A DNA stretch of 64,000 nt, taken from positions 4,811-68,810 of the forward strand of contig QKDR01000159.1 in NCBI GenBank assembly GCA_003252515.1, in the 5' to 3' direction. This document shows, piece after piece, positions 5,677 through 59,990 of the stretch. The notes under the pieces are model-generated. The model saw only the letters and a list, made by a program, of their open reading frames with translations. It ran no database searches and was not told where the DNA came from. How positions within the stretch are numbered: the first letter of the stretch is position 1; each line of letters starts with the position of its first letter. Origin of the DNA: Candidatus Delongbacteria bacterium (lineage in GTDB: Bacteria > UBA4055). The translations under genes were made by a program, and so were the position numbers.

Positions 5677-6645
5677 GTGACATTGAGCGTAAAAAGAGAG
5701 CGATACAGAGATTTCTGCAGATCGAAGTGCAACCTTCCGGTTTTTCTGTATGACTGGTGGCTAGACGCGGTCTGCGGAACGGACAACTGGGATATTGCCG
5801 CTGTAATACCGGACACAGAAATACTGGCGTTCATGCCTCTGTACACAAAAAAAGTTCTCTGGTTCAATATTCTGATTCTTCCCCAGCTTACCCAGTTCCT
5901 CGGCCCCTGGATCAATTATCCCGCCGATCTGAAAGAAACGAACAGAGCCGAGTATGATAAGAAAATGATGAATGAACTCATAGCTCAGATACCAAGAAAT
6001 CATTTCTTTGATCAGAACTTTCATTTCTCAATTTCGAACTGGCTTCCATTTTACTGGAAAGGCTACAAACAGACAACAAGATATACATACATTGTTGAGG
6101 ATATAACGCACACCGAAAGAATATTCAATAATTTCACTCCGTCAAAAAGAAAGAACATCAACAAAGCCTCAGAGATCGTCGAGGTAAAATTCGACCTTTC
6201 CGCCGATGAATTCTACGATCACCACAGCTCAACATTAAAAAAACAGGGAGTCGAAATATCCTACAGCAGAGAACTGTTCAAAAGGATATATGATTCATCT
6301 TACAGCAACAATTCAGGTAAAACGATCTTCGCAGTTGATAAAGAAGGAAGAATTCACTCGGCGCTTTTCGTCGTCTGGTCAAAATACAGTGCTTATGATC
6401 TTATCAGCTCCATAGACCCCGATCATAAGAATTCCGAATCTGCGTCTCTTCTGGTATGGGAGATGATAAAATTTCTTTCAGGAAAGGCTTACAGATTCGA
6501 TTTTGAAGGCAGTATGATAGAATCAGTTGAACGCTCGTTCAGGCAGTTCGGAACAGTTCAGAAAGCATATTTTAATATCAGTAAATGTAACTCCCTTTCT
6601 TACAGAATTTTCAGGAACATCAGAGAAAGGTTCAGAAGAAATTAA
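5677..6645 (+). CDS. FemAB-like / GNAT-fold peptidoglycan-bridge-type acyltransferase family protein
   Basis: About 320 aa with the FemAB/Acetyltransf_6-like organisation (conserved LYTKKVLWFNIL..., C-terminal YRFDFEGSM). GTG start. Confidence 0.5.
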   Translation: MTLSVKRERYRDFCRSKCNLPVFLYDWWLDAVCGTDNWDIAAVIPDTEILAFMPLYTKKVLWFNILILPQLTQFLGPWINYPADLKETNRAEYDKKMMNELIAQIPRNHFFDQNFHFSISNWLPFYWKGYKQTTRYTYIVEDITHTERIFNNFTPSKRKNINKASEIVEVKFDLSADEFYDHHSSTLKKQGVEISYSRELFKRIYDSSYSNNSGKTIFAVDKEGRIHSALFVVWSKYSAYDLISSIDPDHKNSESASLLVWEMIKFLSGKAYRFDFEGSMIESVERSFRQFGTVQKAYFNISKCNSLSYRIFRNIRERFRRN

Positions 6646-6664
6646 TCATCCTGAGGCTCTGACA

Positions 6665-7480
6665 ATGAATTTCGATCCTCTTCTAAAATATGATCCGGTA
6701 CTTCTGGCGCTTTTTGCTACATTATTCACTTACGGCGTGACTGCTCTGGGCTCTGGAATGGTTTTTTTCTTTAAAGCCATCAACAAGAAAGTACTTAATT
6801 CCATGCTCGGATTCGCAGCGGGCGTAATGATCGCGGCCAGCTTCTGGTCTCTTCTGAAACCGGCTATCGAGATGGCTGAATCGAACGGTACTCCATCCTG
6901 GATACCTGCGGCTGCCGGATTCCTTTCGGGCGGAGCATTTTTACTGCTGGTCGACAAACTTCTGCCTCACCTTCATCTGGGATTAAAGATCGATAAAGCT
7001 GAAGGTATAAAAACAGGCTGGCAGAGGAGCGTTCTTCTTGTACTTGCCATAACTTTACACAACATTCCCGAGGGACTGGCTGTCGGAGTAGCGTTCGGCG
7101 CTCTGGCTCATAATCCTGATCCGGGTATGCTTGCCGGCGCGATCGCTCTGGCAATAGGTATCGGACTTCAGAATTTTCCTGAAGGCGCTGCCGTGTCTAT
7201 TCCGCTGAGACGTGAAGGTTTTTCCAGGCTGAGAGCTTTCAATTACGGTCAGCTCTCAGGAATTGTCGAACCCGTCGCGGGAGTTCTCGGTGCTTATCTG
7301 GTGCTGACTGTCACACCGCTTCTACCCTACGCGCTTTCATTTGCAGCCGGAGCTATGATCTTCGTGGTCGTGGAAGAGCTTATTCCAGAGTCACAGACAG
7401 GCGAAGAATCCGATCTTTCCACTGTAGGAGCAATGCTCGGGTTCGCAACCATGATGATACTGGATGTCGCTCTTGGCTAA
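6665..7480 (+). CDS. ZIP family metal (Zn2+/Fe2+) transporter, ZupT/GufA-like
   Basis: Signature HNIPEGLAVGVAFG and GLQNFPEGAAV motifs in eight TM helices. The start moves to the ATG at 6665 (MNFDPLL...) because the ORF-track N-terminus (6527) overlaps the preceding gene. Confidence 0.8.
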   Translation: MNFDPLLKYDPVLLALFATLFTYGVTALGSGMVFFFKAINKKVLNSMLGFAAGVMIAASFWSLLKPAIEMAESNGTPSWIPAAAGFLSGGAFLLLVDKLLPHLHLGLKIDKAEGIKTGWQRSVLLVLAITLHNIPEGLAVGVAFGALAHNPDPGMLAGAIALAIGIGLQNFPEGAAVSIPLRREGFSRLRAFNYGQLSGIVEPVAGVLGAYLVLTVTPLLPYALSFAAGAMIFVVVEELIPESQTGEESDLSTVGAMLGFATMMILDVALG

Positions 7481-7592: not shown

Positions 7593-9008
7593 TTATTTTT
7601 TTCTGTAAATAATAAAAGAACCGAATTTGTCTGCCTCTTCGAATTCCTCAGAACTGTAAAATTTTTGCTCAGGATATGAAAACCCCTGCTTGTTTATCTC
7701 ACTTATATGCCCGGTATGGAAAACAACAAGCGATCCTGAAGGTATGATATTTTCAGTCTGATAATTTAGTCTCTTTACTCTCGAAGGTTCTTTATATCCG
7801 TCGATCAGGTCAATACTGTATTTCGTAAAATGATCAGTATAAATCTGTTTGTCGCAATTTGTTCTGATGAACTGTTCAAAACCTTCAATACTCTCCATGT
7901 CGAAATATTCCCTGAAATGTGCGGTCATAATTATTGAGAAAACGATATAAGCCGTCAGCGAGATCAGCATCCATTTCTTTTTCATCTCCGTAAAGAATTT
8001 TGTAGCTAATACCATCGCCGGCAGGAACAGAGGGAAAAGATACCATGTGAACCTGATCGGCATAGGATGATAAGAAGTAAGGGACATCGAAAAGAATAAA
8101 TATAAAATAAGAAGACCTGAGAACCAGTAAACGACGATCCTGTTCTTTCTGTACTTACGGTAGATCACAAGCTGAATTACAGCCAGAAGAGGTATGAACA
8201 GCATTGTTCTTCTCAGAAAAACCGCACTGATATTATCCGTCAGATCCCTGACAAAGCCTTTGGTAATAAAATCATTACTGCTGAAACCCGATAGAGAGTT
8301 CATAACTGTAAGCCTGTAAAAAAAATCTCCGTTGATCAATAAGTAGATCAGACCTTCAAGCACTATCCCTGTTCCAAGTACAGAAATAGAGATAAAGATA
8401 TATTTATTAAAAGTTCTTTTATAAAATAGCTGGTATACAAGAAGTCCCGTGAGCAGAATACCTGTATAAAACACATTGATCTTGAATAATACGGAAAGTC
8501 CGAACAAAAGTCCGCTTAAAGACGCATATAACCACTTCTTATCTCTGTCGGCTACAAATAACATCAGAATACCGGAATTGACCAGAACCGTTGAGAAAAG
8601 GTCAGTAAAAGCTATTGATGCAAAAAGTATCTCAGTAGGATAGAAAACTGTAAATAAAAGTACCAGAAGCGCTGTCATTTCTGATCTTGTGACAGTTTTA
8701 ACCAGCCTGTAGCTAAGGACCATGTTTATGACCGAAAATATCATCGGAAATACAGTTGTAGCTGTTTTATTCGTTCCGAAAAGAATAAAAGACAGAGATG
8801 TCAGCCAGGTCTGTCCTATTCTCACAAGACAGACCGGGTAACCCAGATAATCCGCTCCGAAGTTACCGTTGTAAAGAGTATAAGCAAGATAATCGTAATA
8901 AGCGTCATCCGAATAAACATGCCCGAAATAAAAGTAGAAACGCAGAAATATCCCAGCTGCCAGCAGAAGCATAACTGTAATTTTAGTTCTTTTATCATCC
9001 CAGATCAT
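7593..9008 (-). CDS. GT-C fold membrane glycosyltransferase (ArnT/PMT-like, GT39/GT83 family)
   Basis: Polytopic membrane protein with an Asp-rich first-loop motif (YSDDAYYDY), 10+ TM helices and a C-terminal soluble domain. RBS GGAGAC upstream of the ATG. Confidence 0.55.
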   Translation of the reverse strand: MIWDDKRTKITVMLLLAAGIFLRFYFYFGHVYSDDAYYDYLAYTLYNGNFGADYLGYPVCLVRIGQTWLTSLSFILFGTNKTATTVFPMIFSVINMVLSYRLVKTVTRSEMTALLVLLFTVFYPTEILFASIAFTDLFSTVLVNSGILMLFVADRDKKWLYASLSGLLFGLSVLFKINVFYTGILLTGLLVYQLFYKRTFNKYIFISISVLGTGIVLEGLIYLLINGDFFYRLTVMNSLSGFSSNDFITKGFVRDLTDNISAVFLRRTMLFIPLLAVIQLVIYRKYRKNRIVVYWFSGLLILYLFFSMSLTSYHPMPIRFTWYLFPLFLPAMVLATKFFTEMKKKWMLISLTAYIVFSIIMTAHFREYFDMESIEGFEQFIRTNCDKQIYTDHFTKYSIDLIDGYKEPSRVKRLNYQTENIIPSGSLVVFHTGHISEINKQGFSYPEQKFYSSEEFEEADKFGSFIIYRKK

Positions 9009-9203
9009 TTTGTCTCCGATTCTTCAAAAGGTAAAATACGCAATTAAAGCATGATTTACAAGCGCTTGAGCGTATTCTTTTTTATTTGACAATAGAATTT
9101 AAATTCATTAAATATAAATATCTGACATACGGGCCAAAATTATCTGTATATACAGTAAAAAAACGCCTCAGAGGCATATATCTTCCAAACCAGTGCCCAA
9201 ACG

Positions 9204-9237
9204 TTGCGGGTAAACGCCACAGAGGCGTTTATCCGCA
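9204..9237 (+). promoter_or_regulatory. Imperfect extended hairpin (tgcggg-taaacgcc/ggcgttta-tccgca) in the 5' leader of the KAP-TIR gene. It overlaps the second copy of a 15-bp direct repeat (aaacgccNcagaggc at 9161-9175 and 9212-9226)
   Basis: Read directly from the sequence. About 45 nt upstream of the ATG at 9279. Function unknown. Confidence 0.3.
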
Positions 9238-9278
9238 CGTTGTGTGACATGCTGTTTTTAAATAAATAAGGAAATATT

Positions 9279-11075
9279 ATGGCAAATAAAAAACAAAAAT
9301 CTTCACAACCTACATTAAATCTACTCAGTGATCAAGCAGTCGGAGAAGGTACACCTATTTCAGCTGATGGATTAGGGTTTCATATGTATTCAAATGTATT
9401 ATCAAGTGTAGCTATCGAGACTCCTGGGCCTTTTACAATCGGTGTTTTTGGTGAATGGGGAACAGGAAAAACTAGTTTGATGAGAATGGTAGAAGAAAAT
9501 CTATCAAAAGAGAAGAATATTATTACAGTATGGTTCAATGCTTGGAGATACGAAAGCGAAGAACAACCGATTGTACCATTAGTAGCAACGATTGTTAGAG
9601 AGATAGAGCGCAATAAGAATTTCATCCAGACATTAGAAGATGGAGGAAAAAGTTTACTTCGAGCCCTTAAAGCCGTTGCTTATGGATTTTCTGCTAAAAC
9701 AAAAGTTAAAGTTCCTGGATTTGCTGAAATAGAAGCATCTTTTGTAGCTAAAGATATGATTGATCGTTCTGAAAATATTGCACCTGACCCACTTCTTGAT
9801 AGAAGTATTTTTTTTGAAGCTTTTCAGCAATTATCTAGCGTTCGAATTCCAAAATCAACGCGTGTAGTAGTTTTGATAGATGATCTAGATCGTTGTTTCC
9901 CAGATAAAGCTATTGCATTACTTGAGAGTATTAAACTTGTTCTAGCCCAACCAGGTTTTATTTTTTTTCTTGGTGTTGCCAGAAAAGTAATTGAAGGCTA
10001 TCTACAGCACAGATATGAAATAGAATATGGTATTAATGGGTTCGAAGGATATGCATACCTCGACAAGATTATACAATTACCATTTCATATTCCTCCCCAT
10101 CGTAACAGAATGTCTACTTTCTGGGAGAATGTGATATCTCGATTGAATGCAGCAGACAGGAAAAGTTTTAGAGACTTAGTTCCAATCATAAACCTTGCAT
10201 CAGGTAGTAACCCTCGTTCGGCAGTGCGCTTTGTAAACAATCTTTTAGTAGACCGAGCTATATTTAAAACAACTGCTGGTGATTTAGCACTTAGTGAAAT
10301 GCCAATTGCTTTTTTTGCTATCTCAAGAAGTATCGAACAAAGATGGCCAACCATATTCTCTCTTCTATCTAGATCTGAAGAAATTTGCGAAAAAGTTGTA
10401 TCTTGGACATCCACACAATTACCAGATATAGATTCTATTGAGCAGCCAGAATTAAGAGAGGTCGCTGCTTTACTAAAAGCAGATCAAGAACTTAATGGAT
10501 TACTTGCATCTAACTATGGTAATCATTGGTTAAGTGAACATAATCGCAGAAATGCTACCATTGATTTTCTACAAGAAGAACGTTCAGAAGTTGAAGAAGT
10601 AGAAACCTATTCTCAGTCGATTTATTATGATATATTCCTTAGTTACAGTTTGGAAGATGAAAAAGCTGCTACTGAGATAAGTAATGTTCTAAAAAATATA
10701 TATGGTCTAAATGTTTTTGATATTAACAAGAGGAGTACATCTTTGCCTGTATCAATTCAATCCCTCGTTGAAACCTCAATAAATTCTTCCCAGATATTAG
10801 TTGCTTTGGTAGGAAAATCCTATAGTAACTCAAATGTATTTTATGAAATAGGTCTAGCTCTAGGGCGAAATAAAACTGTCATTCCATTAATTCTTCCAGA
10901 TGCTGAAATAGAATCTACATTACTAAACTTAGAACACCTCAAAATTAATGAAATTAATAAAGAATCTCTTTACCCAATTTATGAATCTTTCAAAAAGAGT
11001 CAGAGAGATCTTTTTAGTGAAATATCTAAAAATCTATTTAATAGATCAATGCAATTTAAAATTCCAAGAAAATAA
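9279..11075 (+). CDS. KAP-family P-loop NTPase fused to a C-terminal TIR domain (candidate anti-phage defence protein)
   Basis: KAP hallmarks: Walker A GEWGTGKTS (nt about 9448-9474), WFNAWRYE, and Walker B VVVLIDDLDRC (nt about 9867-9899). No TM insert. The TIR domain spans aa 449-560: YDIFLSYSLEDEKAA...SIQSLVETSINSSQILVALVGKSYSNSNVFYEIGLAL, with Glu in the position of the plant/bacterial TIR catalytic Glu. The gene's GC content and codon usage are visibly lower than its neighbours. RBS AAGGA. Confidence 0.8.
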   Translation: MANKKQKSSQPTLNLLSDQAVGEGTPISADGLGFHMYSNVLSSVAIETPGPFTIGVFGEWGTGKTSLMRMVEENLSKEKNIITVWFNAWRYESEEQPIVPLVATIVREIERNKNFIQTLEDGGKSLLRALKAVAYGFSAKTKVKVPGFAEIEASFVAKDMIDRSENIAPDPLLDRSIFFEAFQQLSSVRIPKSTRVVVLIDDLDRCFPDKAIALLESIKLVLAQPGFIFFLGVARKVIEGYLQHRYEIEYGINGFEGYAYLDKIIQLPFHIPPHRNRMSTFWENVISRLNAADRKSFRDLVPIINLASGSNPRSAVRFVNNLLVDRAIFKTTAGDLALSEMPIAFFAISRSIEQRWPTIFSLLSRSEEICEKVVSWTSTQLPDIDSIEQPELREVAALLKADQELNGLLASNYGNHWLSEHNRRNATIDFLQEERSEVEEVETYSQSIYYDIFLSYSLEDEKAATEISNVLKNIYGLNVFDINKRSTSLPVSIQSLVETSINSSQILVALVGKSYSNSNVFYEIGLALGRNKTVIPLILPDAEIESTLLNLEHLKINEINKESLYPIYESFKKSQRDLFSEISKNLFNRSMQFKIPRK

Positions 11076-11362
11076 TCTTGATAAAATAGTCAAATAAAAT
11101 GAGAACATCAGAGAATTCAAAGTGCAAATATATATCCTCTTGATACTAATGATTATTTAAAACAGCACGAACTCACAACATTGGCAAAAGAGAAATGCGC
11201 GGGGAAATTATTTGCACTCCTTTTTACCATGACCGTTAGCTTGAATAGAAATTACAAGGAATGCTATTTCCGGTCATCTAAGGTCCGAATACCTGTTCCT
11301 ATTCTGTCAAGAACTATAATCCTCTATATCTAATACTTAAATCTTTTAGTCGTAGCTGGAAA

Positions 11363-12541
11363 CTAATTGATTTGATATTTCTTTCTCATCTCAGATTCAT
11401 AGCCGAAATATCTGTTCCTTATCCCGTCCAGTTCATCAACGGAAGTTGAATCAAAATCAAAGCTGTACTTAAGTCTGAGACCGAGTTCCGAATTACTGAA
11501 TCTGATAAAATTCTTAAGGCTGTTACCTTTCTGGTAATACCTGAGTATCTGAAGTATCCTGAGCCCGTCTATCTTTTCGTGGCAGGCGCGGATAAATAAT
11601 TTTTCCGTCTTGAAATTATTTCTCAGAGGTTCCCATATGTTTTTTCCGAACGCTTCATATAAATATCCGTCTACAGGAGTCTCAACATCGCGCCTGAACA
11701 GCTCAGGAAGCAGCCTGTAAGTTTCACCTATCCGACTGAAAGCTTCAATGTCATAGAACGGATAGCTTTCCCAGTCACCGGACATACCTTTCGACACTGC
11801 GGGTCCCGTTCCGAACGGCACTCTGTCGGATTCGCGCGCTGAAGGATAAACTGCTTCTTCGTTCCAGACCATGATATCACCGGCTTTTTTCATTCTGTTC
11901 ACGAAGTAGAAATCCTCGCCGGCCTGCTTCGGGGTTATACCGCTGATCTTCCTGTATCCGCCGATCCTGAAAGAAATAGCTGACCCCATAGCCGTAAAAG
12001 CATAAGGAGAATAGACTTTCATAAGGTTCAGCAGGTAGTACCTCATGTAAAGTTCATACCTCAGTATCGCCCGGTCAACGCTTTCATTCCCGATGAGTTC
12101 ATGGTAGTACGGATTTGCAAGAAGAAGCGTTTTTTTATTCTTCCTGAATATATCACGAACAGATTCGATGTAACCTCTTCTGATCCTCGTATCGGCATCA
12201 AGACTTATTACGATATCGTCATCGTCCGATTCACTGTTTATCGCTTCAAAAAGTACCTTTCTCGCATAACCGACACCGCGCCGCTTTCCTTTCCATCCAT
12301 TTCCTTCCGACGCTCTGTCTGTCAGAGTTATGTTCAAGTCCCTGATGTTTTTTATGTATTCTATTGTTTCCAGATTATTTTCGCACAGTTTCTTTTTTAC
12401 AGGATCGTTCCACCACTCATCGGGATTGTTAACGCAAATATAAATCCTGAAGTCCTGAAATGACTGCGCTCCCAGATCTCCGATAAGCCCCTGAATGTGA
12501 TCATTCTCGTTCAGAGCAGGTATTGCTACGAAAACATTCAA
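11363..12541 (-). CDS. Glycosyltransferase family 2 (GT-A fold) protein
   Basis: VAIPALNENDHI at the N-terminus and a DADT (DxD-like) motif, typical of the GT2 core. TTG start. Confidence 0.7.
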   Translation of the reverse strand: MNVFVAIPALNENDHIQGLIGDLGAQSFQDFRIYICVNNPDEWWNDPVKKKLCENNLETIEYIKNIRDLNITLTDRASEGNGWKGKRRGVGYARKVLFEAINSESDDDDIVISLDADTRIRRGYIESVRDIFRKNKKTLLLANPYYHELIGNESVDRAILRYELYMRYYLLNLMKVYSPYAFTAMGSAISFRIGGYRKISGITPKQAGEDFYFVNRMKKAGDIMVWNEEAVYPSARESDRVPFGTGPAVSKGMSGDWESYPFYDIEAFSRIGETYRLLPELFRRDVETPVDGYLYEAFGKNIWEPLRNNFKTEKLFIRACHEKIDGLRILQILRYYQKGNSLKNFIRFSNSELGLRLKYSFDFDSTSVDELDGIRNRYFGYESEMRKKYQIN

Positions 12542-12672: not shown

Positions 12673-13167
12673 ATGAAAAGATTTTTACTAACCGTTATTG
12701 TAGTTTTCAGTATCGCCATTATCGGATGCGGAAGCGGAAAGAAAGATGCAGCTGCTGCTACTGAGAAAAAAGCCGAACCTGTAAAAGAAGTCAAAAAAGA
12801 ACTTGCCGTTACAATGATGATCGGTGAAGAAGAATTAAAATTCTCCGGGGCAAGTTTTCTGAGTAATGCAATGACACCGGCTGACGACACGACAAAATAC
12901 ACTCTTTACGGAACCCCTGCAGGCGGAGACAAAGACGCTCTTAACATCGAATTCGACTCAGCGAAAAAAGGAGAAGCTCAGGAAGCATATATTTCCCTGA
13001 AAAACTACACAATCGAGAAATCATCGGTCACTATTGCTAAATTTGAAATACAAAAAGGTAAAGTATTAGCTGCTGAAGGAGTCTTTTCAGGTCAGCTGAA
13101 AAAACATGACCCTAACGGTTTCCCGACAGGAGAACCTATAGACTTTACAGGTACTTTTGTAAAATAA
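12673..13167 (+). CDS. Lipoprotein, function unknown
   Basis: Signal peptide with lipobox (AIIGC|GSG), a Lys/Ala-rich linker, and strong RBS AAGGAGG. Confidence 0.5.
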   Translation: MKRFLLTVIVVFSIAIIGCGSGKKDAAAATEKKAEPVKEVKKELAVTMMIGEEELKFSGASFLSNAMTPADDTTKYTLYGTPAGGDKDALNIEFDSAKKGEAQEAYISLKNYTIEKSSVTIAKFEIQKGKVLAAEGVFSGQLKKHDPNGFPTGEPIDFTGTFVK

Positions 13168-13310
13168 ATTTTAGTACACATATTCTTACACTGAAAATAT
13201 AATCATATTATATGATATTTTCCATTTGCCACAAGGCATTTTATCAGATATATTAATAACTTATGAAAGAGAAAGTCGAGAATACTATATTTATGCCGCG
13301 GGGAGATCTT

Positions 13311-15500
13311 ATGTTGAAAAGAACTGCAGTTTCTGTACTTGCGATCTTGATAATTTTCTTCGTTTCATGCGACAAGGACGAAGGAGGCGATCCTCCTCAA
13401 AATATTTATCCCGAGATAACTTCATTTACTTCATCGGTTTCCAGCGTTCATCCCGGAATACCTGTTGATGTCTCGGTCACGGCTTCTGACACTAACGGTG
13501 ATGAACTGACGTATTCATATCAGTTCATGGGAGGCCTTCAGGGAACGATCACAGGTACCGGTCCTGACGTGACTGTAACTCTTTCATCGACCGGTCAGCA
13601 TGACCTACAGGTCACGGTCAGTGACGGGAACGGCGGGTCTGCTTCGGAGTTCCTGTCGATCACAGGAGTCAACAATAATCCCGTAATAACCAACATAATC
13701 TCAGACAACACTGAGATACTTATAGGTTCAACAGTGAATATTACCGTAACTGCCAGTGATGCAGATGCTGACAGCCTTACTTATGAATATAACGTAGATA
13801 CCGGAGGTAATATTATTCCATCAGGCAATACAGCTTCAGTCGAAATTAATTCCGTGGGTGACAATGTTGTTTCAGCAGTTGTCAGGGATAGCTTCGGAGG
13901 CAGTGATTATTCCAGTATTACCGTTACGGGTACAATGTCGACTCCGTCAATAACCGCCATGACAGCCGGGAGTACTCTTATTCAACAGAACGAATCTACT
14001 TCTGTAACTTGCACTGCGGTAGGCGGAACAGGATCGCTGAGCTACTGGTTCTCCGCAATTGAGGGATATCTTGTCCAGTCCGGAAATAATGCGACTTATA
14101 CTGCATCCGGTTTCTTTTCAGGAATTGATGTAATTACAGTTCAGGTTACCGATTCCGTGTTCAATCAGACCGAAGATACATTAAGCATCAGAATAAATCA
14201 GAAACCCTCTATATCCTCTTCAGGTGTCACTTTTGCAACGATCGGAAAAGGAATGACAACAGAGCTATCGGCGACAGTATACGATGAAGAGAACGACCCT
14301 GTTTATTATGCGTGGTCAATATTAAGCGGTACCGGTACGATTACAGGCAGCGGTCCAGCAGTTTATTATACTACTGAAAGCTACGGTGATCATTATATCG
14401 AAGTGTCAATCGGGGATACTTACTGGACGAATACTGATAGAGATACCGTCCATGTGTTCTGCGAACCTCAATGGCAGCCGGTTCCGGAAGTTAACGCCAT
14501 TGCGGAACAGTTTCTGGATATTGCCACTTATAATTCAGGTCTGTATGTCACACATAATACTCCCGATTCAGCTGTTCAGCTGATAAAATATAACGGGACA
14601 TCATGGGACAATATTGGAGCTTCTTTCAGCGGAAGCGGCTGGAATGTCGGTAAACTGATGCTTACAGGATCGGATATGTATATGCTCAATTCGTATTTCG
14701 ACTGGAGTGTATTCATGGAAAAGAGAGCTGTTTACAAGTTTAACGGCAGTGGATGGAACGTTCATGCTCCTCTCGGCGACGGAGGCAGTACTGACTGGTT
14801 CGACGCCGCAGCCTACGGTAGCGTTATATATCAGGCATATTCGAATTCAAAAACAGTCGTCGAAAGATTCGACGGAAGCTGGAGTATAATCGGTGATTCC
14901 TTATCCTTAGGAGATTCGTACACTAACTCTATCGCTGTTGATCCGAACGGCAACGTATATCTCGCGTTCGTAGATAATGAGGACAACGATCCGTTAACGG
15001 ACGATATACTGAAGGTTATGAAATGGAGCGGGGTTTCATGGTCTACTATCGGGAACGGTTTCACGGACGGAGAAGCTCTCGGTCCTGTGATCAAGATGAA
15101 TGGTGACATACCGTATATCGCGTTCCAGGACAGAGCGCACAGCGACAGGGTCACCGTCATGTACTACGACGGAGCGTGGAACACTGTTGGGGATCCCGGT
15201 TTCCCGTACTGGCTCGGTGGGACTGGAGATCCCGATCCGGTGATGGGAGGAATAGATTTCGTCTTCGACGGCGACGACATTTACTGCGGATACCAGCAGA
15301 CAGGACTTACAGGATTAAATAAAACAAGTCCGTCTGTTATGAAATGGAACGGTTCCGAATGGACACTTGTCGGTATCAAACACGTAACAGGTACGACTCC
15401 GTGTTTCGGTATGAAAATTGTCATTGACTCGAACGGGATTCCTAATTTCATTACTGCCAAGGACGACAGATCGTACAGCACGGTCTATAAGTTCGAATAG
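13311..15500 (+). CDS. Large secreted lipoprotein with four tandem Ig-like (PKD/cadherin-like) domains and a C-terminal beta-propeller-like repeat region
   Basis: Start moved to the ATG at 13311 (MLKRTAVSVLAILIIFFVSC lipobox, RBS GGGAGA). Four copies of P.IT...V.VTASD.D.D.LTY.Y. The C-terminus has repeated W..(I/V)G motifs. Confidence 0.6.
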   Translation: MLKRTAVSVLAILIIFFVSCDKDEGGDPPQNIYPEITSFTSSVSSVHPGIPVDVSVTASDTNGDELTYSYQFMGGLQGTITGTGPDVTVTLSSTGQHDLQVTVSDGNGGSASEFLSITGVNNNPVITNIISDNTEILIGSTVNITVTASDADADSLTYEYNVDTGGNIIPSGNTASVEINSVGDNVVSAVVRDSFGGSDYSSITVTGTMSTPSITAMTAGSTLIQQNESTSVTCTAVGGTGSLSYWFSAIEGYLVQSGNNATYTASGFFSGIDVITVQVTDSVFNQTEDTLSIRINQKPSISSSGVTFATIGKGMTTELSATVYDEENDPVYYAWSILSGTGTITGSGPAVYYTTESYGDHYIEVSIGDTYWTNTDRDTVHVFCEPQWQPVPEVNAIAEQFLDIATYNSGLYVTHNTPDSAVQLIKYNGTSWDNIGASFSGSGWNVGKLMLTGSDMYMLNSYFDWSVFMEKRAVYKFNGSGWNVHAPLGDGGSTDWFDAAAYGSVIYQAYSNSKTVVERFDGSWSIIGDSLSLGDSYTNSIAVDPNGNVYLAFVDNEDNDPLTDDILKVMKWSGVSWSTIGNGFTDGEALGPVIKMNGDIPYIAFQDRAHSDRVTVMYYDGAWNTVGDPGFPYWLGGTGDPDPVMGGIDFVFDGDDIYCGYQQTGLTGLNKTSPSVMKWNGSEWTLVGIKHVTGTTPCFGMKIVIDSNGIPNFITAKDDRSYSTVYKFE
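13410..14460 (+). repeat. Four tandem repeats of about 270-285 nt encoding Ig-like domains inside the CDS
   Basis: Repeated PEITSF..., PVITNI..., PSITAM..., PSISSS... units with a conserved VTASD.D.D.LTY core. Boundaries approximate. Confidence 0.5.
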
Positions 15501-15525
15501 ACTTTCTTAAAAACCGGGGGATATA

Positions 15526-18498
15526 ATGAAATACATGAAGCGCGCGACAGGGAATATACTTATACTGCTGATCAGTTTTGCAATGCAGGCAGCTATTCCT
15601 GCGGGTTACTATGATTCCGCTACAGGAACCGGATACACGCTGAAGACCCAGCTGCATAATATAATCGACGATCATACTGTAGTTTCTTATGATGCACTTT
15701 GGACACATTTCCAGAGTACAGACGTGGATAATTACTACGAGAACGACGGTAGTGTGCTCGACATGTATTCTGAAAATCCCGCCGGCACTGATCCTTACGA
15801 ATTTACATTTGTCTCCAACCAATGCGGAACGTACTCTGTTGAAGGCGACTGTTACAATAGGGAGCACAGCTGGCCGAAAAGCTGGTTCAACGACGCGTCC
15901 CCGATGTACTCGGACATTTTCCACCTCTACCCCACCGACGGGAAAGTGAACGGGATGAGAAGCAACTGGCCTTTCGGTGAGACGAACGCGCCTACATGGA
16001 CTTCACAGAACGGCTCAAAACTCGGACCCAGCGCTTATCCGGGCTATACAGGTACAGTGTTCGAACCGCTTGACGAGTTCAAAGGCGATTTCGCCCGCAG
16101 TTATTTCTACATGGCGACCCGTTACGAGGACGTGATATCCGGATGGCCGGGCTGCGACATGCTCGACGGATCAGCCGACAAGGTATTTACCGACTGGGCT
16201 CTGAACATGCTGATCGACTGGCACAACGCCGATCCCGTATCACAGAAAGAGATAGACAGGAACGACCTTATTTATACTAACGTTCAGCACAACCGCAATC
16301 CATTCATAGACCACCCGGAGTATGTGAATTATATCTGGGGCGGTGCCGCTCCTGTCCCTTCCGTCAATTTTGTAACCACATCCCAACAGGTCGAGGAGAG
16401 TGCCGGGTCTTTAGGAGTATATGTTTCTATATCTCAGGCCATCCCGGATGATGTTACCGCTAATTTCACTGTAACGGGAACAGCTTCGAACGGTTCAGAC
16501 TACACTCTTTCTCAGAACTACGTTCTTTTCCCTGCTTCCGCTACTGTCAGCCAGTATGTGACGCTTACAATAACTGACGATACAGAACCGGAGGATTTCG
16601 AGTCGATAATCATAACTATCGATAATCTGGTAACAGACAATACCGAAATAATCATAGGCAACAGTGATGAGATTATCTTCACGATCAACAACAACGACGG
16701 GTACGACGCAACACCGCCGTACATATACAATCATATACTTCTGAACGATTCGACACTGGTACTGGATTTTTCAGAGAACATGGATCCGGTCACAACAGAA
16801 ACGCTGACGAACTACGTCGTTGACAATAGTGTCGGCAATCCTCTTTCCGCCCTTCTCGGATATGAAGGCGATTCATCTAAGGTCGAACTGTCCTTCCCCG
16901 TATTTTCATCAGGTATAAACTATCAGCTTACTATAAACAACGTTGAAGATCCTGCCGGTAATACGATAGCCGCGAACACTACCGTTAATTTCGCGGTCTC
17001 GTCAGGAGGAGGGAACGGCTGGATCGAATATTTCGAGGACGCAACCTTCTCCAGTTATTATACCGGAACGGTCACCTACCCCACCGGAGACTGGGACCTG
17101 GTAAACGTATACCTCGAGCCTGCAAGCGAAGCTTACGAAGGCGAACATGCAGTACGAATGAACGATGATACGGCAGGAGCGTCCGTAACCACTCCCGCAA
17201 TAAACGGCGTCGATTCCGTGATTTTCTACTACCGCGCCCTGAACAGTGAAGCCTCATCTTCAACTTTCTGGCTGCAGAAATCCGTCGACGACGGAGCTTA
17301 CACGAACGTTCAGAGCCAGGCATTTCAGGCCAGCACTTACAGTCAGTTCGCATATAAGGTCAACGACACATCCGATAACATAAAGCTAAGGGTTCTGAAC
17401 GACAATCAGGCCGGGCATCTTATAATTGACTGCTTTAAAGTCGTAACATTCTCAGTACCCGCGCCTGACACAACTCCGCCTACTATCACGGGACATGAGA
17501 TCAGCGGCACGGATATTATTATATCTTTCGACGAGGAACTCGATCCGGCTACATCAGAATCCGTTATCAATTATGTGCTTGATAACGGGGGAGATAATCC
17601 GTCGGCAGCTGTACTGGGCTATCTCGGTGATCCGGCAAAGGTAGTTCTTTCATACCCTTCGTTCATTGAGGATGTCACCTATACGCTAACAATAAATAAC
17701 GTGGAAGATCTCGCAGGCAATCCTGTAGCGGCAGGTTCGACGGTCCAGTTCATAATTAATTCGACAGGCGGCGGAGGTGGAGAAAGCTGGATCGAAGATT
17801 TCGAACTGGCGAACTGGGGAACATACTCCACCGGCACATTTACTTTATCTACCGGAGACTGGGATATAGTTGATGTCTATCCCGAAACATCATCATCGAC
17901 TTCATATGAAGGATCTCATGCTGTCAGGCTGAATGACGACTCGAATAATTCATCCATCACTGCTCCGGCGGTAAACGGTGTCGATTCAGTGATATTCTAT
18001 TTCAGGACTTTGAACCAGGAAGCTGCCGTTTCTACTTTCTGGCTTCAGAAATCTGTAGACGGCGGAGCATACACGAATATTACGAGCCAGCCGTTCCAGA
18101 ACAACACTTACGCGATGTTCGCACACAAAGTGAATGACGCATCAGATAATATCAGACTGAGGATTCTGAGCGACCAGCAGTCAGGTCACCTGATAGTGGA
18201 CTACTTCAAAGTCGTCACTTTCCCTGTTAACTTGAATTCTCCTGCCAATGTATCCACAGTAATAAGCGGCAGTGATATAACTTTAAGCTGGGATGCTGTG
18301 ACCGGAGCTTTATCATATGATGTGTACTCGTCAGATCTGCCGTACGACGGTTTTGCATGGGAAGCAACAGTAACTGTACCCGAATACACGACCTCCTGCA
18401 GTGAAGCGAAAAAATTTTATTATATACTGGCGAGCGATCAGGGAACGAAGAAGATCGACCCGAAAATATCTCACGAGAGATTTATTGAGATAAAATAA
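15526..18498 (+). CDS. Secreted multidomain nuclease: Endonuclease I family (EndA/NucM/Bsn-like) domain + Calx-beta + two 254-aa tandem repeat domains + FN3-like tail
   Basis: Signal peptide. Endonuclease_1 motifs (NREHSWPKSW, NRNPFIDHPE). Calx-beta-like segment (VNFVTTSQQVEESAGSLGVYVSI...LTITDDTEPEDFE). Two roughly 60%-identical 254-aa units. C-terminal LSWDAVTGALSYDVY (FN3-like). Confidence 0.7.
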   Translation: MKYMKRATGNILILLISFAMQAAIPAGYYDSATGTGYTLKTQLHNIIDDHTVVSYDALWTHFQSTDVDNYYENDGSVLDMYSENPAGTDPYEFTFVSNQCGTYSVEGDCYNREHSWPKSWFNDASPMYSDIFHLYPTDGKVNGMRSNWPFGETNAPTWTSQNGSKLGPSAYPGYTGTVFEPLDEFKGDFARSYFYMATRYEDVISGWPGCDMLDGSADKVFTDWALNMLIDWHNADPVSQKEIDRNDLIYTNVQHNRNPFIDHPEYVNYIWGGAAPVPSVNFVTTSQQVEESAGSLGVYVSISQAIPDDVTANFTVTGTASNGSDYTLSQNYVLFPASATVSQYVTLTITDDTEPEDFESIIITIDNLVTDNTEIIIGNSDEIIFTINNNDGYDATPPYIYNHILLNDSTLVLDFSENMDPVTTETLTNYVVDNSVGNPLSALLGYEGDSSKVELSFPVFSSGINYQLTINNVEDPAGNTIAANTTVNFAVSSGGGNGWIEYFEDATFSSYYTGTVTYPTGDWDLVNVYLEPASEAYEGEHAVRMNDDTAGASVTTPAINGVDSVIFYYRALNSEASSSTFWLQKSVDDGAYTNVQSQAFQASTYSQFAYKVNDTSDNIKLRVLNDNQAGHLIIDCFKVVTFSVPAPDTTPPTITGHEISGTDIIISFDEELDPATSESVINYVLDNGGDNPSAAVLGYLGDPAKVVLSYPSFIEDVTYTLTINNVEDLAGNPVAAGSTVQFIINSTGGGGGESWIEDFELANWGTYSTGTFTLSTGDWDIVDVYPETSSSTSYEGSHAVRLNDDSNNSSITAPAVNGVDSVIFYFRTLNQEAAVSTFWLQKSVDGGAYTNITSQPFQNNTYAMFAHKVNDASDNIRLRILSDQQSGHLIVDYFKVVTFPVNLNSPANVSTVISGSDITLSWDAVTGALSYDVYSSDLPYDGFAWEATVTVPEYTTSCSEAKKFYYILASDQGTKKIDPKISHERFIEIK
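16714..18237 (+). repeat. Two 762-bp direct tandem repeats (in-frame, coding) within the nuclease gene
   Basis: Units start at PPYIYNHILLND (16714) and PPTITGHEISGT (17476). Both end ...HLI(I/V)D(C/Y)FKVVTF. Confidence 0.8.
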
Positions 18499-21502: not shown

Positions 21503-22690
21503 TTACATTCTGAACGCATCGTCTAATCCGACACATTTCAGCGATATCTCCGGATATGTTTCTGTAAAGGATCTGTACTTGGATATTGAAAAAGCAGCCG
21601 GATCGAATTTGGCTTCATAGGCATAGCTATTCCCGTTATCGTCTTTCGCAATAAAATCAACTTCCTTTCCATCACGGGTCCGCCAGAATCTGAGATTATC
21701 AGAGCCGTATCTTTCTTTTAATAGAAGATAAATATAATTTTCGAATAATTCGCCTTTATCCGGACGGTTTCCGATCGGACTGAAATCATTGGTCAGAGCA
21801 TTCCTGAGGCCAAGATCGGCGAAATATAATTTGGACATTTTCCTCAATTCCGAGATCAGATTGTTATGAAACGGAGGAAGAAGATGTATGTGAAAAGATT
21901 TACGCATGACCCAGATATACTGGGCAACAGTTTTATTGTCTAGACCTGCATCAGGAGCAAGACTGTTCGTGTTGAGAAGCCCGCCCGTTCCAAACGCAAG
22001 CATTTTTAACAGATTCAAATATTTATCGTGATAGGACAAGTTACTTTCAACGGCATCTTTTTTCGCATATGAATCTGCAATTTCCTTAAGAACGCGTTTT
22101 TTCTCTTTATCCGTACCACTCAGCACGACTTCGGGATAACCTCCGTATATAAGGTATTCGTAAAAATGTTCTTTGATTCTGTCCATATAAAGAAGCGGTA
22201 TATTTCCATTGTTTAGATGTGGGGCCAGATCATCTTCTCCTTTGAATATCAGTACTTCCTTTAAAGACATAGCAGGAAGTTCATAAATCCGTTTTCTCCC
22301 TGCAAGAGAATCTCTAAATTTGCGGTCGATGTAGAAACTTGATGAGCCTGTTACTATGAACTTGATTTTATCCAGATATGTATCGTAATGATATTTAAGG
22401 AAATTCGACGGATCATTTAGATACTGAACCTCGTCAATAAGAACATATCTTCTTTCCGTATCCGCAGGTTTCGCTATAAGCTGAAGAAGGTTTTTCGGAT
22501 TATCGTCGAGCATACGGAGGATTTCTTTATCTTCCAGCGTCAGATAAAAAACTGATATATTTTTGTTCTTCAGACCGGAAAATATCTGCTTCAGGATTGT
22601 AGTCTTCCCCGTTTGTCTTGCTCCGATGATCAGAGAAATGTATTTCGTTTCCAAATCTTTTTCTATTTCATTTTTAAGCTGTCGTTCCAA
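21503..22690 (-). CDS. AAA_14/DUF4143 family ATP-binding protein
   Basis: Walker A GARQTGKTT and Walker B VLIDEVQ. The C-terminal half matches DUF4143-type proteins. Confidence 0.7.
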   Translation of the reverse strand: MERQLKNEIEKDLETKYISLIIGARQTGKTTILKQIFSGLKNKNISVFYLTLEDKEILRMLDDNPKNLLQLIAKPADTERRYVLIDEVQYLNDPSNFLKYHYDTYLDKIKFIVTGSSSFYIDRKFRDSLAGRKRIYELPAMSLKEVLIFKGEDDLAPHLNNGNIPLLYMDRIKEHFYEYLIYGGYPEVVLSGTDKEKKRVLKEIADSYAKKDAVESNLSYHDKYLNLLKMLAFGTGGLLNTNSLAPDAGLDNKTVAQYIWVMRKSFHIHLLPPFHNNLISELRKMSKLYFADLGLRNALTNDFSPIGNRPDKGELFENYIYLLLKERYGSDNLRFWRTRDGKEVDFIAKDDNGNSYAYEAKFDPAAFSISKYRSFTETYPEISLKCVGLDDAFRM

Positions 22691-45753: not shown

Positions 45754-46199
45754 TGCCCAGAAAAATTGACACGATAGTGATCCACTGCAGCGCAACGGAA
45801 TTCGGCGGCAGAACGCTTTTCAAAAGATGGCACAGGAAGCTGGGATGGGACGACGTCGGCTACCATTTTATTATCACGAACGCTTACCCGAAGAAGAAAT
45901 ACTGGAAAGAGAAGACTCCCGACTTTAAGGCCGACGGAAGAATAGAGAACGGCCGCCCGGTAGAACTTACCGGAGCTCATGTCAGGCTTCACAACGAGAA
46001 TACCATCGGCATCTGTCTGGTCGGAGACAGGACTTTCACCGGCAGGCAGTTCGATTCACTGAACAAACTTGTAAAGAGACTTTCCGCTGAATATGGCATA
46101 AATATCATCAAAGGCCATTACGAGTATGATACTGCTCAGGAACAGGGCAAGACATGCCCCAATATCAATATGGATCATCTCAGATCTCTTTTAATTTAA
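45753..46199 (+). CDS. N-acetylmuramoyl-L-alanine amidase, Amidase_2 (AmpD/T7-lysozyme/PGRP) family, no signal peptide
   Basis: IVIHCSAT...GYHFII... zinc-binding pattern of the Amidase_2 family. Start overlaps the kinase stop (TAATG). Confidence 0.75.
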   Translation: MPRKIDTIVIHCSATEFGGRTLFKRWHRKLGWDDVGYHFIITNAYPKKKYWKEKTPDFKADGRIENGRPVELTGAHVRLHNENTIGICLVGDRTFTGRQFDSLNKLVKRLSAEYGINIIKGHYEYDTAQEQGKTCPNINMDHLRSLLI

Positions 46200-46221
46200 A
46201 ATAATACCGCCGGGTCTGCTT

Positions 46222-59319: not shown

Positions 59320-59901
59320 TTCCTACCTCCCTGTTTTAGTACTTCACTTCGTTAATTTATATACAAAAATCCCGGGTAAACTAGAACTCCCGAAGGTTTT
59401 TCGGGTTGAGTTTGTGCGTAACCGGTATTCTGGCTGTAATTTTTGTACCGTAAATATAGTCATTTGTGAAAAATTACGCAAGAGATATTTTAGCCATCTC
59501 AATACAACGATCATAATTGTGATCCTGCCTTAAGTAAAATTAAACTCAGAATGTTAATAATATATTGTTTTGTGGGATTGTAACCGTGCTTTAAAGAATT
59601 TATCACAGAAATTGATTTTCTGCGGAGAGGATGTTTCAGTAAGTCAGTTACAATTTATAATTTTGATCTTTTCATATTGCACTTCCTTATAATGTTAGGC
59701 GTTATACTGCTTATCCTTCCACTTCCTGCCTTTGATCCCCGATCTGTCAATCCGGTCTCGCGGGTGAAGTGCCGCTTTCTTTTTAGAAAGATAAGAGGCG
59801 TTCCGACGAAGAACTATCTATATTAAGTTTCCGCGACCAATATAACTGAAATAAATTAAATTTGCAAGGAGAAATGACAGATTTTTCACTGAATACACCC
59901 A

Positions 59902-59934
59902 CCTTTCCGCTGATTCAAACACACTTTCCGCTGA
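59902..59934 (+). promoter_or_regulatory. Two copies of the direct repeat (c)tttccgctga(W)t, 21 bp apart, upstream of the first DUF1566 gene
   Basis: acctttccgctgattc at 59901-59916 and acactttccgctgaat at 59921-59936. Candidate transcription-factor site at about -90/-55 relative to the ATG at 59991. Confidence 0.3.
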
Positions 59935-59990
59935 ATATATTTTTTAAATGAAATATATATGTGCATATTGGAAGAAAACGGAGGTGCAAA

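Follow-up and report, generated by a model that had tools for sequence, protein, structure and literature searches.

There is good support for the horizontal acquisition of a gene coding for a fusion of a KAP P-loop NTPase with a TIR domain (hereafter KAP-TIR) by a Candidatus Delongbacteria bacterium, because its composition is deviant, the corresponding site is empty in relatives and its nearest homologues include proteins from Zixibacteria and Thermodesulfobacteriota MAGs. The gene lies in a stretch of 64,000 nucleotides of contig QKDR01000159.1, which was analyzed over its full length and is called the window (Table 1). We lean towards an explanation in which a one-gene cassette of about 2.3 kb was acquired and KAP-TIR acts as an ATP-gated TIR-NADase, serving as anti-phage or conflict sensor-effector. 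As an evolutionary event, this is a clear but fairly ordinary horizontal acquisition that otherwise poses no challenge to current understanding. It is of wider interest as a lone defence-type gene in a housekeeping region of an uncultured phylum, at a site without visible mobility machinery where the cargo differs by lineage, and as a member of a large KAP-NTPase subfamily that combines a very conserved ATPase chassis with interchangeable C-terminal modules.

Table 1. Features of the KAP-TIR locus, in window coordinates.
Feature	Position	Strand	Details
GT-C-type glycosyltransferase (PMT_2), left flanking host gene	7593..9008	-	471 aa; Pfam PF13231, E 2.4e-9
Native GT-C upstream region kept after insertion	9009..9064	-	blastn homology and spacer alignment
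Conserved promoter-like motif TTGTAAA-N13-TTGCGTATTTT	9031..9061	-	inside native GT-C upstream region
Left arm, KAP-TIR 5' region	9065..9278	+	AT-rich
Hairpin repeat copy 1	9161..9182	.	terminator scan and repeat family D6/I3
Hairpin repeat copy 2	9205..9237	.	inverted repeat I19; near-perfect palindrome, 13-14 bp
KAP P-loop NTPase-TIR fusion gene	9279..11075	+	598 aa
Domains of the KAP-TIR protein			KAP domain aa 41-325; helical domain about 331-435; linker 436-446; TIR about 450-560; C-terminal helix 561-592
Walker A GEWGTGKTS	9450..9476	+	aa 58-66; translation
Conserved soluble insert PGFAEIEASFVAKDMI between Walker A and B	9714..9761	+	aa 146-161; near-invariant columns
Walker B / KAP signature LIDDLDRCFPD	9873..9905	+	aa 199-209; translation
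E523 codon, catalytic-glutamate position of TIR NADases	10845..10847	+	translation
Right arm, between convergent KAP-TIR and GT2 stops	11076..11362	.	no feature detected
GT2-like glycosyltransferase, right flanking host gene	11363..12541	-	392 aa; Pfam PF13632/PF00535 near cut-off

Layout and composition of the locus

The ORF calls agree with the preliminary description of the locus as a lone plus-strand gene flanked by two minus-strand glycosyltransferase genes. Orthologues of GT-C with 61-66% identity were found in Delongbacteria-like contigs. The GT2-like ORF matches its Pfam models slightly below their cut-offs; its homologues (62-71% identity) are annotated as GT2 and several of them belong to Candidatus Delongbacteria. 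The non-coding arms of 270 and 287 bp had been contrasted with the other genes of the window, most of which overlap or lie less than 100 bp apart. Both lengths and the prevalence of short gaps (25 of 39) were correct, but arm length alone is unexceptional because 8 of the 39 inter-ORF gaps reach 260 bp or more. The arms are also not abnormally AT-rich for non-coding DNA, since their GC contents of 0.34 and 0.33 exceed the intergenic mean of 0.295 in the window. As initially noted, there is no integrase or transposase domain in any ORF of at least 150 aa in the whole 64 kb, and no tRNA was found within the window. A repeat search yielded no convincing terminal repeats at the boundaries of the insert, at which no target-site duplication was seen either. 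The locus does not have the marks by which a classical genomic island borne by an integrase is recognized, namely a gene for an integrase or transposase, a tRNA or att target, and direct repeats on both sides.

The composition of the KAP-TIR gene is foreign to its surroundings. With a GC content of 0.341, a GC3 of 0.192 (z = -3.5; the window ORFs average 0.47, sd 0.09) and a z-score of -4.8 for the synonymous-codon log-likelihood, it ranks lowest of the 40 window ORFs for GC, GC3 and codon fit and has the most deviant composition of all, as its reported AT-richness relative to the neighbours had suggested. GC1 and GC2 are normal. The claimed codon shift proved to be exact, with frequencies in KAP-TIR versus the rest of 0% and 32% for CTG, 4% and 45% for CCG, 58% and 4% for CCA and 34% and 9% for TTA; similar differences were found for GCG (0% and 29%), CTA (23% and 3%) and CGA (16% and 2%). 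The summed chi-square was 504 (41 df, p = 4e-81), and NCG codons, which are favoured by the host, are avoided in the KAP-TIR gene. The most deviant stretch of the window comprises 2.3 kb at 9001-11300 (tetranucleotide distance z = 3.99; GC z = -2.6). Usage is strongly non-uniform, and the uniform composition that had been named as an argument against acquisition was not seen. The donor may have had a far lower third-position GC and have avoided NCG codons, and the gene would still be undrifted toward the composition of its host.

The insertion site in related genomes

Seven distinct related contigs from Candidatus Delongbacteria-like MAGs (L001, L003/L010, L006, L008, L011, L012 and L013), with 61-71% aa identity on the flanking genes, contain GT2 and GT-C as adjacent genes separated by a spacer of 62-68 nt (about 65). 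KAP-TIR was present at none of the host-lineage loci of about 16 relatives. An alignment of relatives, which had been proposed as a check, thus revealed a conserved GT2-GT-C junction in seven contigs, with KAP-TIR missing there in all relatives sampled.

The island had been delimited as 9009-11362. Its right end was retained, but the left end had to be moved, as the first approximately 56 bp are native GT-C upstream DNA, leaving an insert of about 9065-11362. Homology in blastn runs beyond the GT-C start into the spacers of L003, L010 and L007, and the promoter-like motif of this region is present upstream of GT-C in L002, L003, L007, L010 and L065, regardless of the gene located farther upstream. 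In the relatives, this motif begins 3-15 nt past the GT2 stop. The cassette may have entered the Candidatus Delongbacteria-like chromosome just past the GT2 stop and upstream of the GT-C promoter-like region, and would thereby have separated two genes that are direct neighbours in many relatives. The likeliest route would be homologous or illegitimate recombination at a cargo-permissive junction. In other lineages, the same junction holds RtcB or an RND efflux pair, and GT-C was lost in four related contigs. The junction is for these reasons a generally variable spot that is not specific for defence genes.

The closest KAP-TIR homologues (63-69% aa identity) include proteins from a Zixibacteria MAG and a Thermodesulfobacteriota MAG. 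Look-ups of the exact KAP-TIR protein yielded no record of a strain-level relative. Since the relatives of the host are only 61-71% identical, age and direction of the event, i.e. a gain in this lineage versus an ancient gain followed by multiple losses, have to be judged mainly by composition. KAP-TIR could alternatively be an old resident, or a gene repeatedly lost in relatives, whose AT-rich third positions result from selection to keep the expression of a toxic product low. The distance of all available relatives, the lability of the junction with its losses of GT-C, and the normal GC1 and GC2 are compatible with such a history. However, the codon preference switches within families and beyond what an AT shift would produce, NCG codons are avoided, tetranucleotide usage deviates more than anywhere else in the 64 kb, and the gene is missing from the host-lineage loci. 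Additionally, the nearest homologues belong to other phyla, where their GC3 (0.46-0.56) follows the GC3 of the contig around them or lies above it. A long residence is highly improbable in light of these observations, and horizontal acquisition is the better explanation.

Domains, family and possible function of KAP-TIR

The identification of the gene as a KAP NTPase-TIR fusion was borne out by Pfam. KAP_NTPase (PF07693) matches aa 41-325 with 130.5 bits (cut-off 20; E 1e-37) and 278 of 293 model positions, and is the best NTPase family for this protein, as the match to AAA_16 (31.6 bits) falls under the cut-off of 32.6. The catalytic motifs are intact: in Walker A, G58, G61, G63, K64, T65 and S66 are invariant among 34 homologues, and in Walker B, both alignments are invariant at D201, D204 and C206, the 34 homologues also at L203, P208 and D209, and the 83 and 116 cluster representatives at R205. 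Classical KAP NTPases have transmembrane helices inside the NTPase domain, which are not universal in prokaryotes. In KAP-TIR, the soluble insert between the Walker motifs occupies the place of these helices; the predicted structure is of low confidence at 142-161, with a pLDDT below 50. No transmembrane-like segment was found in the protein, in which the maximal 19-residue Kyte-Doolittle mean of 1.64 corresponds to a core beta-strand after Walker B. Pfam detected no repeat domain, and the protein has no obvious sensor domain.

The TIR part was recognized by TIR_2 with 42 bits (gathering cut-off 28; E 1e-10) and has a TIR fold, which is nearest to enzymatically active or assembly-forming TIRs. 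The DIFLSY beta-A motif is kept, and 29 of 34 homologues have E in the column of E523, which faces the E of TIR-STING and BtpA (RELD) in a profile alignment. In the usual WxxxE motif, the W four residues before E523 is replaced by V. Conservation is lowest in the TIR, whose mean identity is 26% while the KAP core reaches 66%, and a single-sequence query with the TIR found no homologue in PDB sequences or a large protein database. Catalysis by the TIR is not assured because of this poor conservation, the missing W and the absence of the catalytic Glu from 5 of 34 homologues, of which P0002 is the closest to KAP-TIR of all.

At E <= 1e-30, 745 clusters at 50% identity were counted for KAP-TIR, which occurs in several phyla, cyanobacteria and actinomycetes among them. 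The C-terminal module is swappable within the subfamily: TIR, the commonest recognizable module, was found in 18 of 83 cluster representatives, and the rest carry pentapeptide, LRR, pYEATS or other modules, with FGE-sulfatase also occurring on the same KAP chassis. Across five independent homologue contexts, there was no conserved neighbour gene. Three of the five were mobile or defence-type: one had integrases together with IS91 and a Schlafen protein, another was a prophage-like region, and the third contained toxin-antitoxin genes and IS110. Carriage by phages or plasmids was considered and rejected, as no full-length KAP-TIR was found among 50,697 phage or 72,556 plasmid records; IMG/VR contained distant KAP-only matches and nothing closer.

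PADLOC, which had been suggested for this contig, gave defence-like matches of the NTPase half to QatA (E 3e-34), PDC-S20 and PifA (E 2e-27), but called no named system. This outcome is explained by the coverage, since the matches comprised the NTPase half (NTPase only, about 250 of 646-720 model positions for QatA and PifA) and weak ThsB-type matches of the TIR. Of the initial term "defence islet", the horizontal acquisition was upheld, whereas "defence" is derived from homology and the genomic contexts of homologues only. QatA of QatABCD and PifA of the F plasmid have the KAP NTPase core in common with KAP-TIR, but neither has a TIR. In NCBIfam, QatA scored 133 bits compared to an equivalog cut-off of 600, and in place of QatB, QatC and QatD the neighbouring genes code for glycosyltransferases. 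The fold of RdrA from RADAR resembles the KAP ATPase of KAP-TIR at 13-14% identity, and RdrA was not among the PADLOC matches. RdrA has no TIR and works together with a second protein, the adenosine deaminase RdrB, whereas the KAP-TIR islet is devoid of a deaminase gene. The literature searched contained no papers on PDC-S20 or on KAP with RdrA. Bacterial TIR-NLR/STAND proteins (Avs-like), plant TNLs and SARM1 combine an NB-ARC or NACHT NTPase with an N-terminal TIR, in contrast to the KAP NTPase and C-terminal TIR observed here, and the TPR, LRR or WD40 sensor arrays of STAND/Avs-type proteins have no counterpart in KAP-TIR.

A close parallel in architecture is provided by EF_KAP and three KAP fusions from gut metagenomes, which were found to be antiphage in 2026 and for whose defence both Walker B and the C-terminal region were needed (PLoS Biol, PMC13552941). 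Like KAP-TIR, which is also a stand-alone single ORF, they consist of one polypeptide that has its KAP NTPase at the N-terminus and varies in its C-terminal region. The tested fusions have C-termini of unknown fold, in EF_KAP with two transmembrane helices, whereas KAP-TIR is soluble with a recognizable TIR; EF_KAP was compared by its description. EF_KAP, the only mechanistically probed KAP fusion, showed no abortive-infection behaviour (PMC13552941). We found no experiments on any KAP-TIR protein in the literature searched. Because KAP fusions were validated as antiphage only in 2026, KAP-TIR offers a tractable test of KAP effector gating with an assayable NADase readout.

KAP-TIR probably acts in phage defence, most likely as a soluble, stand-alone single-protein sensor-effector in anti-phage or other conflicts. 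The KAP ATPase, with a fold like that of the ring-forming RdrA and of Cdc6/ORC/NLR switches, would be kept inactive until an infection cue leads to binding or hydrolysis of ATP and to oligomerisation. The C-terminal TIRs may then cluster in active head-to-tail assemblies, which would cleave NAD+ via E523 and cause growth arrest or abortive infection. Alternatively, the TIR may be a non-catalytic module for oligomerisation, scaffolding or recognition, with the KAP ATPase or another activity as effector in a non-abortive response like that of EF_KAP. The very fast divergence of the TIR relative to the NTPase and the loss of Glu in some homologues, P0002 among them, are in line with this possibility, as is the sensor-like rather than effector-like appearance of the pentapeptide, LRR, FGE-sulfatase and pYEATS C-termini on the same chassis. 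We consider it unlikely, as the DIFLSY motif and E523 are kept and the fold is nearest to active or assembly-forming TIRs.

The TIR of KAP-TIR shows weak similarity, in profile and in fold, to ThsB, a bacterial TIR that serves phage defence in Thoeris. By analogy, it might produce a cADPR isomer or a similar nucleotide as second messenger and thereby switch on an effector whose gene lies elsewhere. In Thoeris, ThsB has ThsA as partner and is not fused to an NTPase, whereas no ThsA, SLOG, SIR2 or Macro partner adjoins KAP-TIR and no neighbour is conserved in the five contexts. Moreover, the ThsB matches stay under the curated thresholds and a single-gene islet would travel without its effector, rendering signal generation quite unlikely. 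An extension of the preferred sensor-effector reading, which we regard as doubtful, is that KAP-TIR represents a widespread single-protein immune module, with a soluble ring of KAP ATPases in the role that the STAND NTPase has in NLR-type immunity. If this were true, the near-invariant insert, having displaced the ancestral transmembrane hairpin, would serve to sense the trigger or to gate the protein, the rapid evolution of the TIR and its occasional lack of Glu would stem from an arms race against phage anti-TIR factors, and in Delongbacteria the GT2/GT-C junction would be a hotspot that takes up cargo without a recombinase.

Arms of the insert

In the right arm, RNA folds were at chance level (z = -0.85 to +0.15), all ORFs were 50 aa or shorter, and neither a repeat nor a blastn match was found. 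The left arm contains TTGACA at 9086-9091 and AAGGA 5-6 nt ahead of the ATG, as read from the sequence, and had no blastn match to relatives or homologue flanks among the fetched loci. An Rfam scan of both arms gave a single chance-level match (E 0.64), and a known RNA element was rejected on account of this result and the unstructured right arm. A conserved mobile cassette was likewise rejected: the arms are unlike the flanks of the closest homologues, and the nucleotide similarity of 72-73% to these begins inside the coding region. A 14-nt inverted repeat (9080-9093 / 11086-11099) was not accepted as terminal repeat because 85 inverted pairs of similar quality are present in 2.8 kb and its right half sits 264 bp inside the insert. 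When remnants of displaced cargo were sought in the arms by tblastn with RtcB, the OMP-like ORF, RND/MFP, GNAT, GT-C and GT2 of the relatives, one 27-bit match was obtained, between aa 277-316 of the L065 GT2 and 9158-9277 on the minus strand (13/40 identities). This match is attributed to chance because the GT2 of the window itself fails to reproduce it.

The hairpin motif AAACGCCNCWGWGGCR is confined to the left arm, at a chance expectation of 0.21 matches per window. Read on the minus strand, copy 1 resembles an intrinsic terminator, with a stem-loop at 9177-9163 and T7 directly after it, and faces the GT-C promoter. Copy 2 is located 42 nt upstream of the KAP-TIR ATG, and the RNA fold of 9150-9282 reaches -40.4 kcal/mol (z = -4.7), a stability equalled by 0 of 200 shuffles.

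Composition of the islet gene and variability of the GT2/GT-C junction

The islet gene, encoding a KAP P-loop NTPase fused to a C-terminal TIR domain (KAP-TIR), lies on the plus strand between two minus-strand glycosyltransferase genes, and in this the ORF map agrees with the preliminary description. Among the 40 window ORFs of at least 150 aa, it has the lowest GC content (0.341), the lowest GC3 (0.192 versus a window mean of 0.47, sd 0.09; z = -3.5) and the poorest synonymous-codon fit to the remaining window (z = -4.8), while GC1 and GC2 are ordinary. The deviant synonymous codons noted from inspection proved to be large, genuine switches (summed chi-square 504, 41 df, p = 4e-81): CTG, CCG and GCG reach 0%, 4% and 0% in KAP-TIR versus 32%, 45% and 29% in the rest of the window, and CCA and TTA 58% and 34% versus 4% and 9%. 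In sliding-window analysis, no part of the 64 kb deviated more than the 2.3 kb centred on the gene, in tetranucleotide distance (z = 3.99) as well as in GC (z = -2.6), consistent with the claimed non-uniform, AT-rich composition. The long non-coding arms, also regarded as anomalous, are present, but gaps of at least 260 bp are not rare in the window (8 of 39). Because, in addition, arm GC (0.34 and 0.33) is slightly above the intergenic mean (0.295), the compositional anomaly resides in the coding sequence. As originally stated for the locus, no tRNA was found in the 64-kb window and no integrase or transposase domain in any of its sizeable ORFs; the remaining content includes housekeeping genes, e.g. 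RRF, ArgRS, class II aldolase and BamA/TamB.

Positions of the features discussed (window coordinates)
Feature	Coordinates	Strand	Basis
GT-C-type glycosyltransferase (PMT_2), 471 aa	7593-9008	-	Pfam
KAP-TIR ORF, 598 aa	9279-11075	+	ORF map, Pfam
GT2-like gene, 392 aa	11363-12541	-	Pfam
Promoter-like motif upstream of GT-C	9031-9061	-	
Hairpin copy 1	9163-9177	-	
Hairpin copy 2	9205-9237		
KAP-TIR segment aa 146-161	9714-9761		
ZIP zinc-transporter gene	6527-7480	+	
Block with secreted Endonuclease I	12673-18498	+	
AAA_14 + DUF4143 ATPase	21503-22690	-	
Kinase/AAA_16-type protein, 1253 aa	41992-45753	+	
Long intergenic region, 468 bp	45754-46221		
Long intergenic region, 641 bp	59320-59960		
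Tandem Lcl paralogues, 423 and 412 aa	59961-62572	+	
Small ORF downstream of Lcl paralogues	62588-63043		

Searches with the GT-C and GT2 proteins retrieved, at 61-71% amino acid identity, unclassified MAGs as well as contigs bearing the label Candidatus Delongbacteria; their synteny with the window extends, among others, to the GGDEF-HDOD, TrkA, TrkH and GNAT genes. Alignment to these relatives, as had been proposed, revealed a conserved GT2/GT-C junction with presence/absence polymorphism of KAP-TIR. In seven distinct contigs (L001, L003/L010, L006, L008, L011, L012, L013) the junction is empty and GT-C directly adjoins GT2 with a spacer of 62-68 nt. The junction contains an RtcB-like ligase in L002 and L065 (in L002 together with a beta-barrel-like ORF) and an RND membrane-fusion protein with its pump in L066 and L004; in L005, L009 and L063/L064, GT-C is missing and a GNAT gene adjoins GT2. 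Since the junction is empty in seven distinct contigs and KAP-TIR was found in none of the relatives' loci compared, the window being alone in carrying it, acquisition of KAP-TIR at this site is favoured, with the caveat that the relatives are all distant. In composition, the acquired segment is a textbook islet, and it lacks mobility genes. The initial interpretation as a horizontally acquired defence islet is supported, with corrected boundaries and with the qualification that the junction is variable in general and not a dedicated defence hotspot.

The RtcB-like RNA ligase genes (L002 625-1779, L065 7166-8329) are 90% identical between both contigs, and with their start they reach into the GT2 stop region. 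The beta-barrel-like ORF of L002 (239 aa) follows on the opposite strand. The RND pair (L066 7245-11509, L004 2677-6947) immediately precedes GT-C, whose start it overlaps. In L066 the pair comes after GT2, and in L004 no GT2 was detected upstream of it.

Boundaries and arms of the insert

Nucleotide homology between the window and its relatives extends through GT-C and past its start codon into the spacer. The promoter-like motif TTGTAAA-N13-TTGC(G/T)TATT(T/A)T directly upstream of GT-C is also found in L002, L003, L007, L010 and L065, regardless of the insert farther upstream, and in empty-site relatives 3-15 nt separate the GT2 stop codon from this motif. Because GT-C homology and the motif reach into the spacer and the GT2 stop lies near the motif in relatives, the insert comprises approximately 9065-11362 (~2.3 kb). 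Of the interval 9009-11362 taken as the insert in the preliminary description, 9009-9064 is thus excluded as conserved, native GT-C upstream DNA, and GT-C probably retained its own promoter after the insertion.

A hairpin-forming motif, AAACGCC-N-CWGWGGC, occurs twice in the left arm and is absent elsewhere in the window (0.21 chance matches expected). Read on the minus strand, copy 1 resembles an intrinsic terminator, with a stem-loop followed by seven T, and we speculate that it is placed to halt GT2-derived transcription through the islet ahead of the GT-C promoter. Copy 2 is palindromic over 13-14 bp and lies 42 nt before the KAP-TIR ATG, and the RNA fold of 9150-9282 has a z of -4.7. In the right arm, neither structure, ORF, repeat nor homology was detected; an Rfam search of 8800-11600 gave no match above chance. 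Neither terminal repeats nor a target duplication were found for the insert, and its arms lack similarity to the flanks of the closest KAP-TIR homologues. The most parsimonious route of insertion would be recombination at a permissive junction.

Architecture and predicted function of KAP-TIR

Profile matches above the Pfam gathering scores (KAP_NTPase, aa 41-325, 130 bits; TIR_2, aa 452-548, 42 bits), motifs and fold place the protein in the KAP NTPase family and the TIR superfamily. Both Walker motifs (A, GEWGTGKTS at aa 58-66; B, LIDDLDRCFPD at aa 199-209) are intact and invariant among homologues. The protein has no transmembrane segment, and the site of the inserted TM hairpin of classical KAP NTPases is occupied by a soluble segment, PGFAEIEASFVAKDMI (aa 146-161), which hardly varies across phyla and has an AlphaFold pLDDT <50.

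Homologues form 745 clusters at 50% identity (E <= 1e-30) in many phyla, including Zixibacteria, Thermodesulfobacteriota, KSB1, Anaerolineae, cyanobacteria and many actinomycetes. Mean identity to homologues is 66% in the KAP core (aa 15-330; closest five 80-84%), 39% in the helical domain (aa 331-435; 48-68%) and 26% in the TIR (aa 448-560; 33-40%). For many of the best representatives, the alignment is confined to residues ~13-440 and the C-termini differ, with TIR_2 (18), pentapeptide repeats (7), LRR (3), pYEATS (3), FGE-sulfatase (2) and FtsK-gamma (2) among the 83 top cluster representatives. These varied C-termini on a conserved core indicate that the subfamily is an ATPase chassis with exchangeable C-terminal modules.

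The TIR contains the DIFLSY beta-A motif and a WxxxE motif without the usual Trp; E523 lines up with the Glu of the catalytic motif in solved TIRs and is conserved as Glu in 29 of 34 aligned homologues. The five homologues that lost it, including P0002, P0011 and P0092, still have KAP cores 80-84% identical to the window protein; P0002, its closest relative, has Q at this position and a degenerate FLSY motif as well. Because the TIR evolves fast and the Glu is lost in some homologues, we retain two alternatives to a catalytic effector in a protein that itself carries both DIFLSY and E523: a non-catalytic TIR is unlikely, and a signalling TIR seems quite improbable.

KAP-TIR differs from QatA (133 bits versus an equivalog cut-off of 600 bits, no QatBCD genes), Thoeris (no ThsA), RADAR (no RdrB) and STAND/Avs systems (no NB-ARC, NACHT or repeat sensor), and the PADLOC models PDC-S20 and PifA match only its NTPase half. 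We found no account of a KAP-TIR fusion being described or tested in the literature searched. The protein is predicted to belong to the KAP-NTPase fusion defence proteins, with TIR as effector domain. No partner gene is common to the five independent homologue contexts. Three of these have a mobile or defence-like character: one contains integrases, IS91 and a Schlafen/AlbA_2 protein, one is a prophage-like region in which Bro-N and a tail protein are encoded, and one has toxin-antitoxin clusters with IS110. The phage and plasmid collections searched contained no full-length copy.

A stand-alone sensor-effector is the best-supported reading; domains, intact motifs, folds and the lack of a conserved partner gene are shown, and trigger, assembly, catalysis and phenotype are inferred. 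The KAP domain would undergo ATP-dependent switching and oligomerisation and thereby cluster the TIR domains; the infected cell would then be arrested by their cleavage of NAD+. Independent support comes from a 2026 study of KAP NTPase fusions as antiphage proteins (PMC13552941), which found its model protein to be non-abortive. Earlier comparative work indicated that KAP ATPases can take the place of STAND NTPases in conflict systems (PMC8195603). In a more novel and less likely reading, a soluble KAP ring would gate the fast-evolving TIR, and the conserved 146-161 insert may be the sensing element.

Other features of the window

The entire neighbourhood around GT2/GT-C is a mosaic. The ZIP gene, which separates the GNAT gene from GT-C in the window, resembles a second lineage-specific insertion, placed across GT-C from KAP-TIR: it is missing at that position in L001, L003, L008, L010 and L013, in which only ~45-55 bp lie between GT-C and GNAT, and its GC (0.484) and GC1 (0.60) are above those of its neighbours. 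Its true start is probably later, since the listed ORF overlaps the GNAT ORF by 119 bp. The block upstream of GT2 encodes a lipoprotein-like product (164 aa), a protein with PKD/Ig domains (745 aa) and a secreted Endonuclease I (990 aa) that also carries Calx-beta and Big_5 domains; it is present in L005, L006, L008, L011, L013, L063 and L065 and absent from L001, L003, L007 and L010.

Farther away, the 1253-aa protein combines an N-terminal Ser/Thr protein kinase domain with an AAA_16-type NTPase region in a STAND-like kinase architecture and has an unusually low GC2 (0.256), and the AAA_14 + DUF4143 ATPase gene is flanked by a 321-bp gap of relatively high GC (0.41). The two long intergenic regions, the first with a GC of 0.47, well above the intergenic mean, may contain hidden small genes or RNAs. 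The tandem paralogues carry two Lcl C-terminal domains apiece, and the small ORF downstream of them has a low GC3 (0.29).
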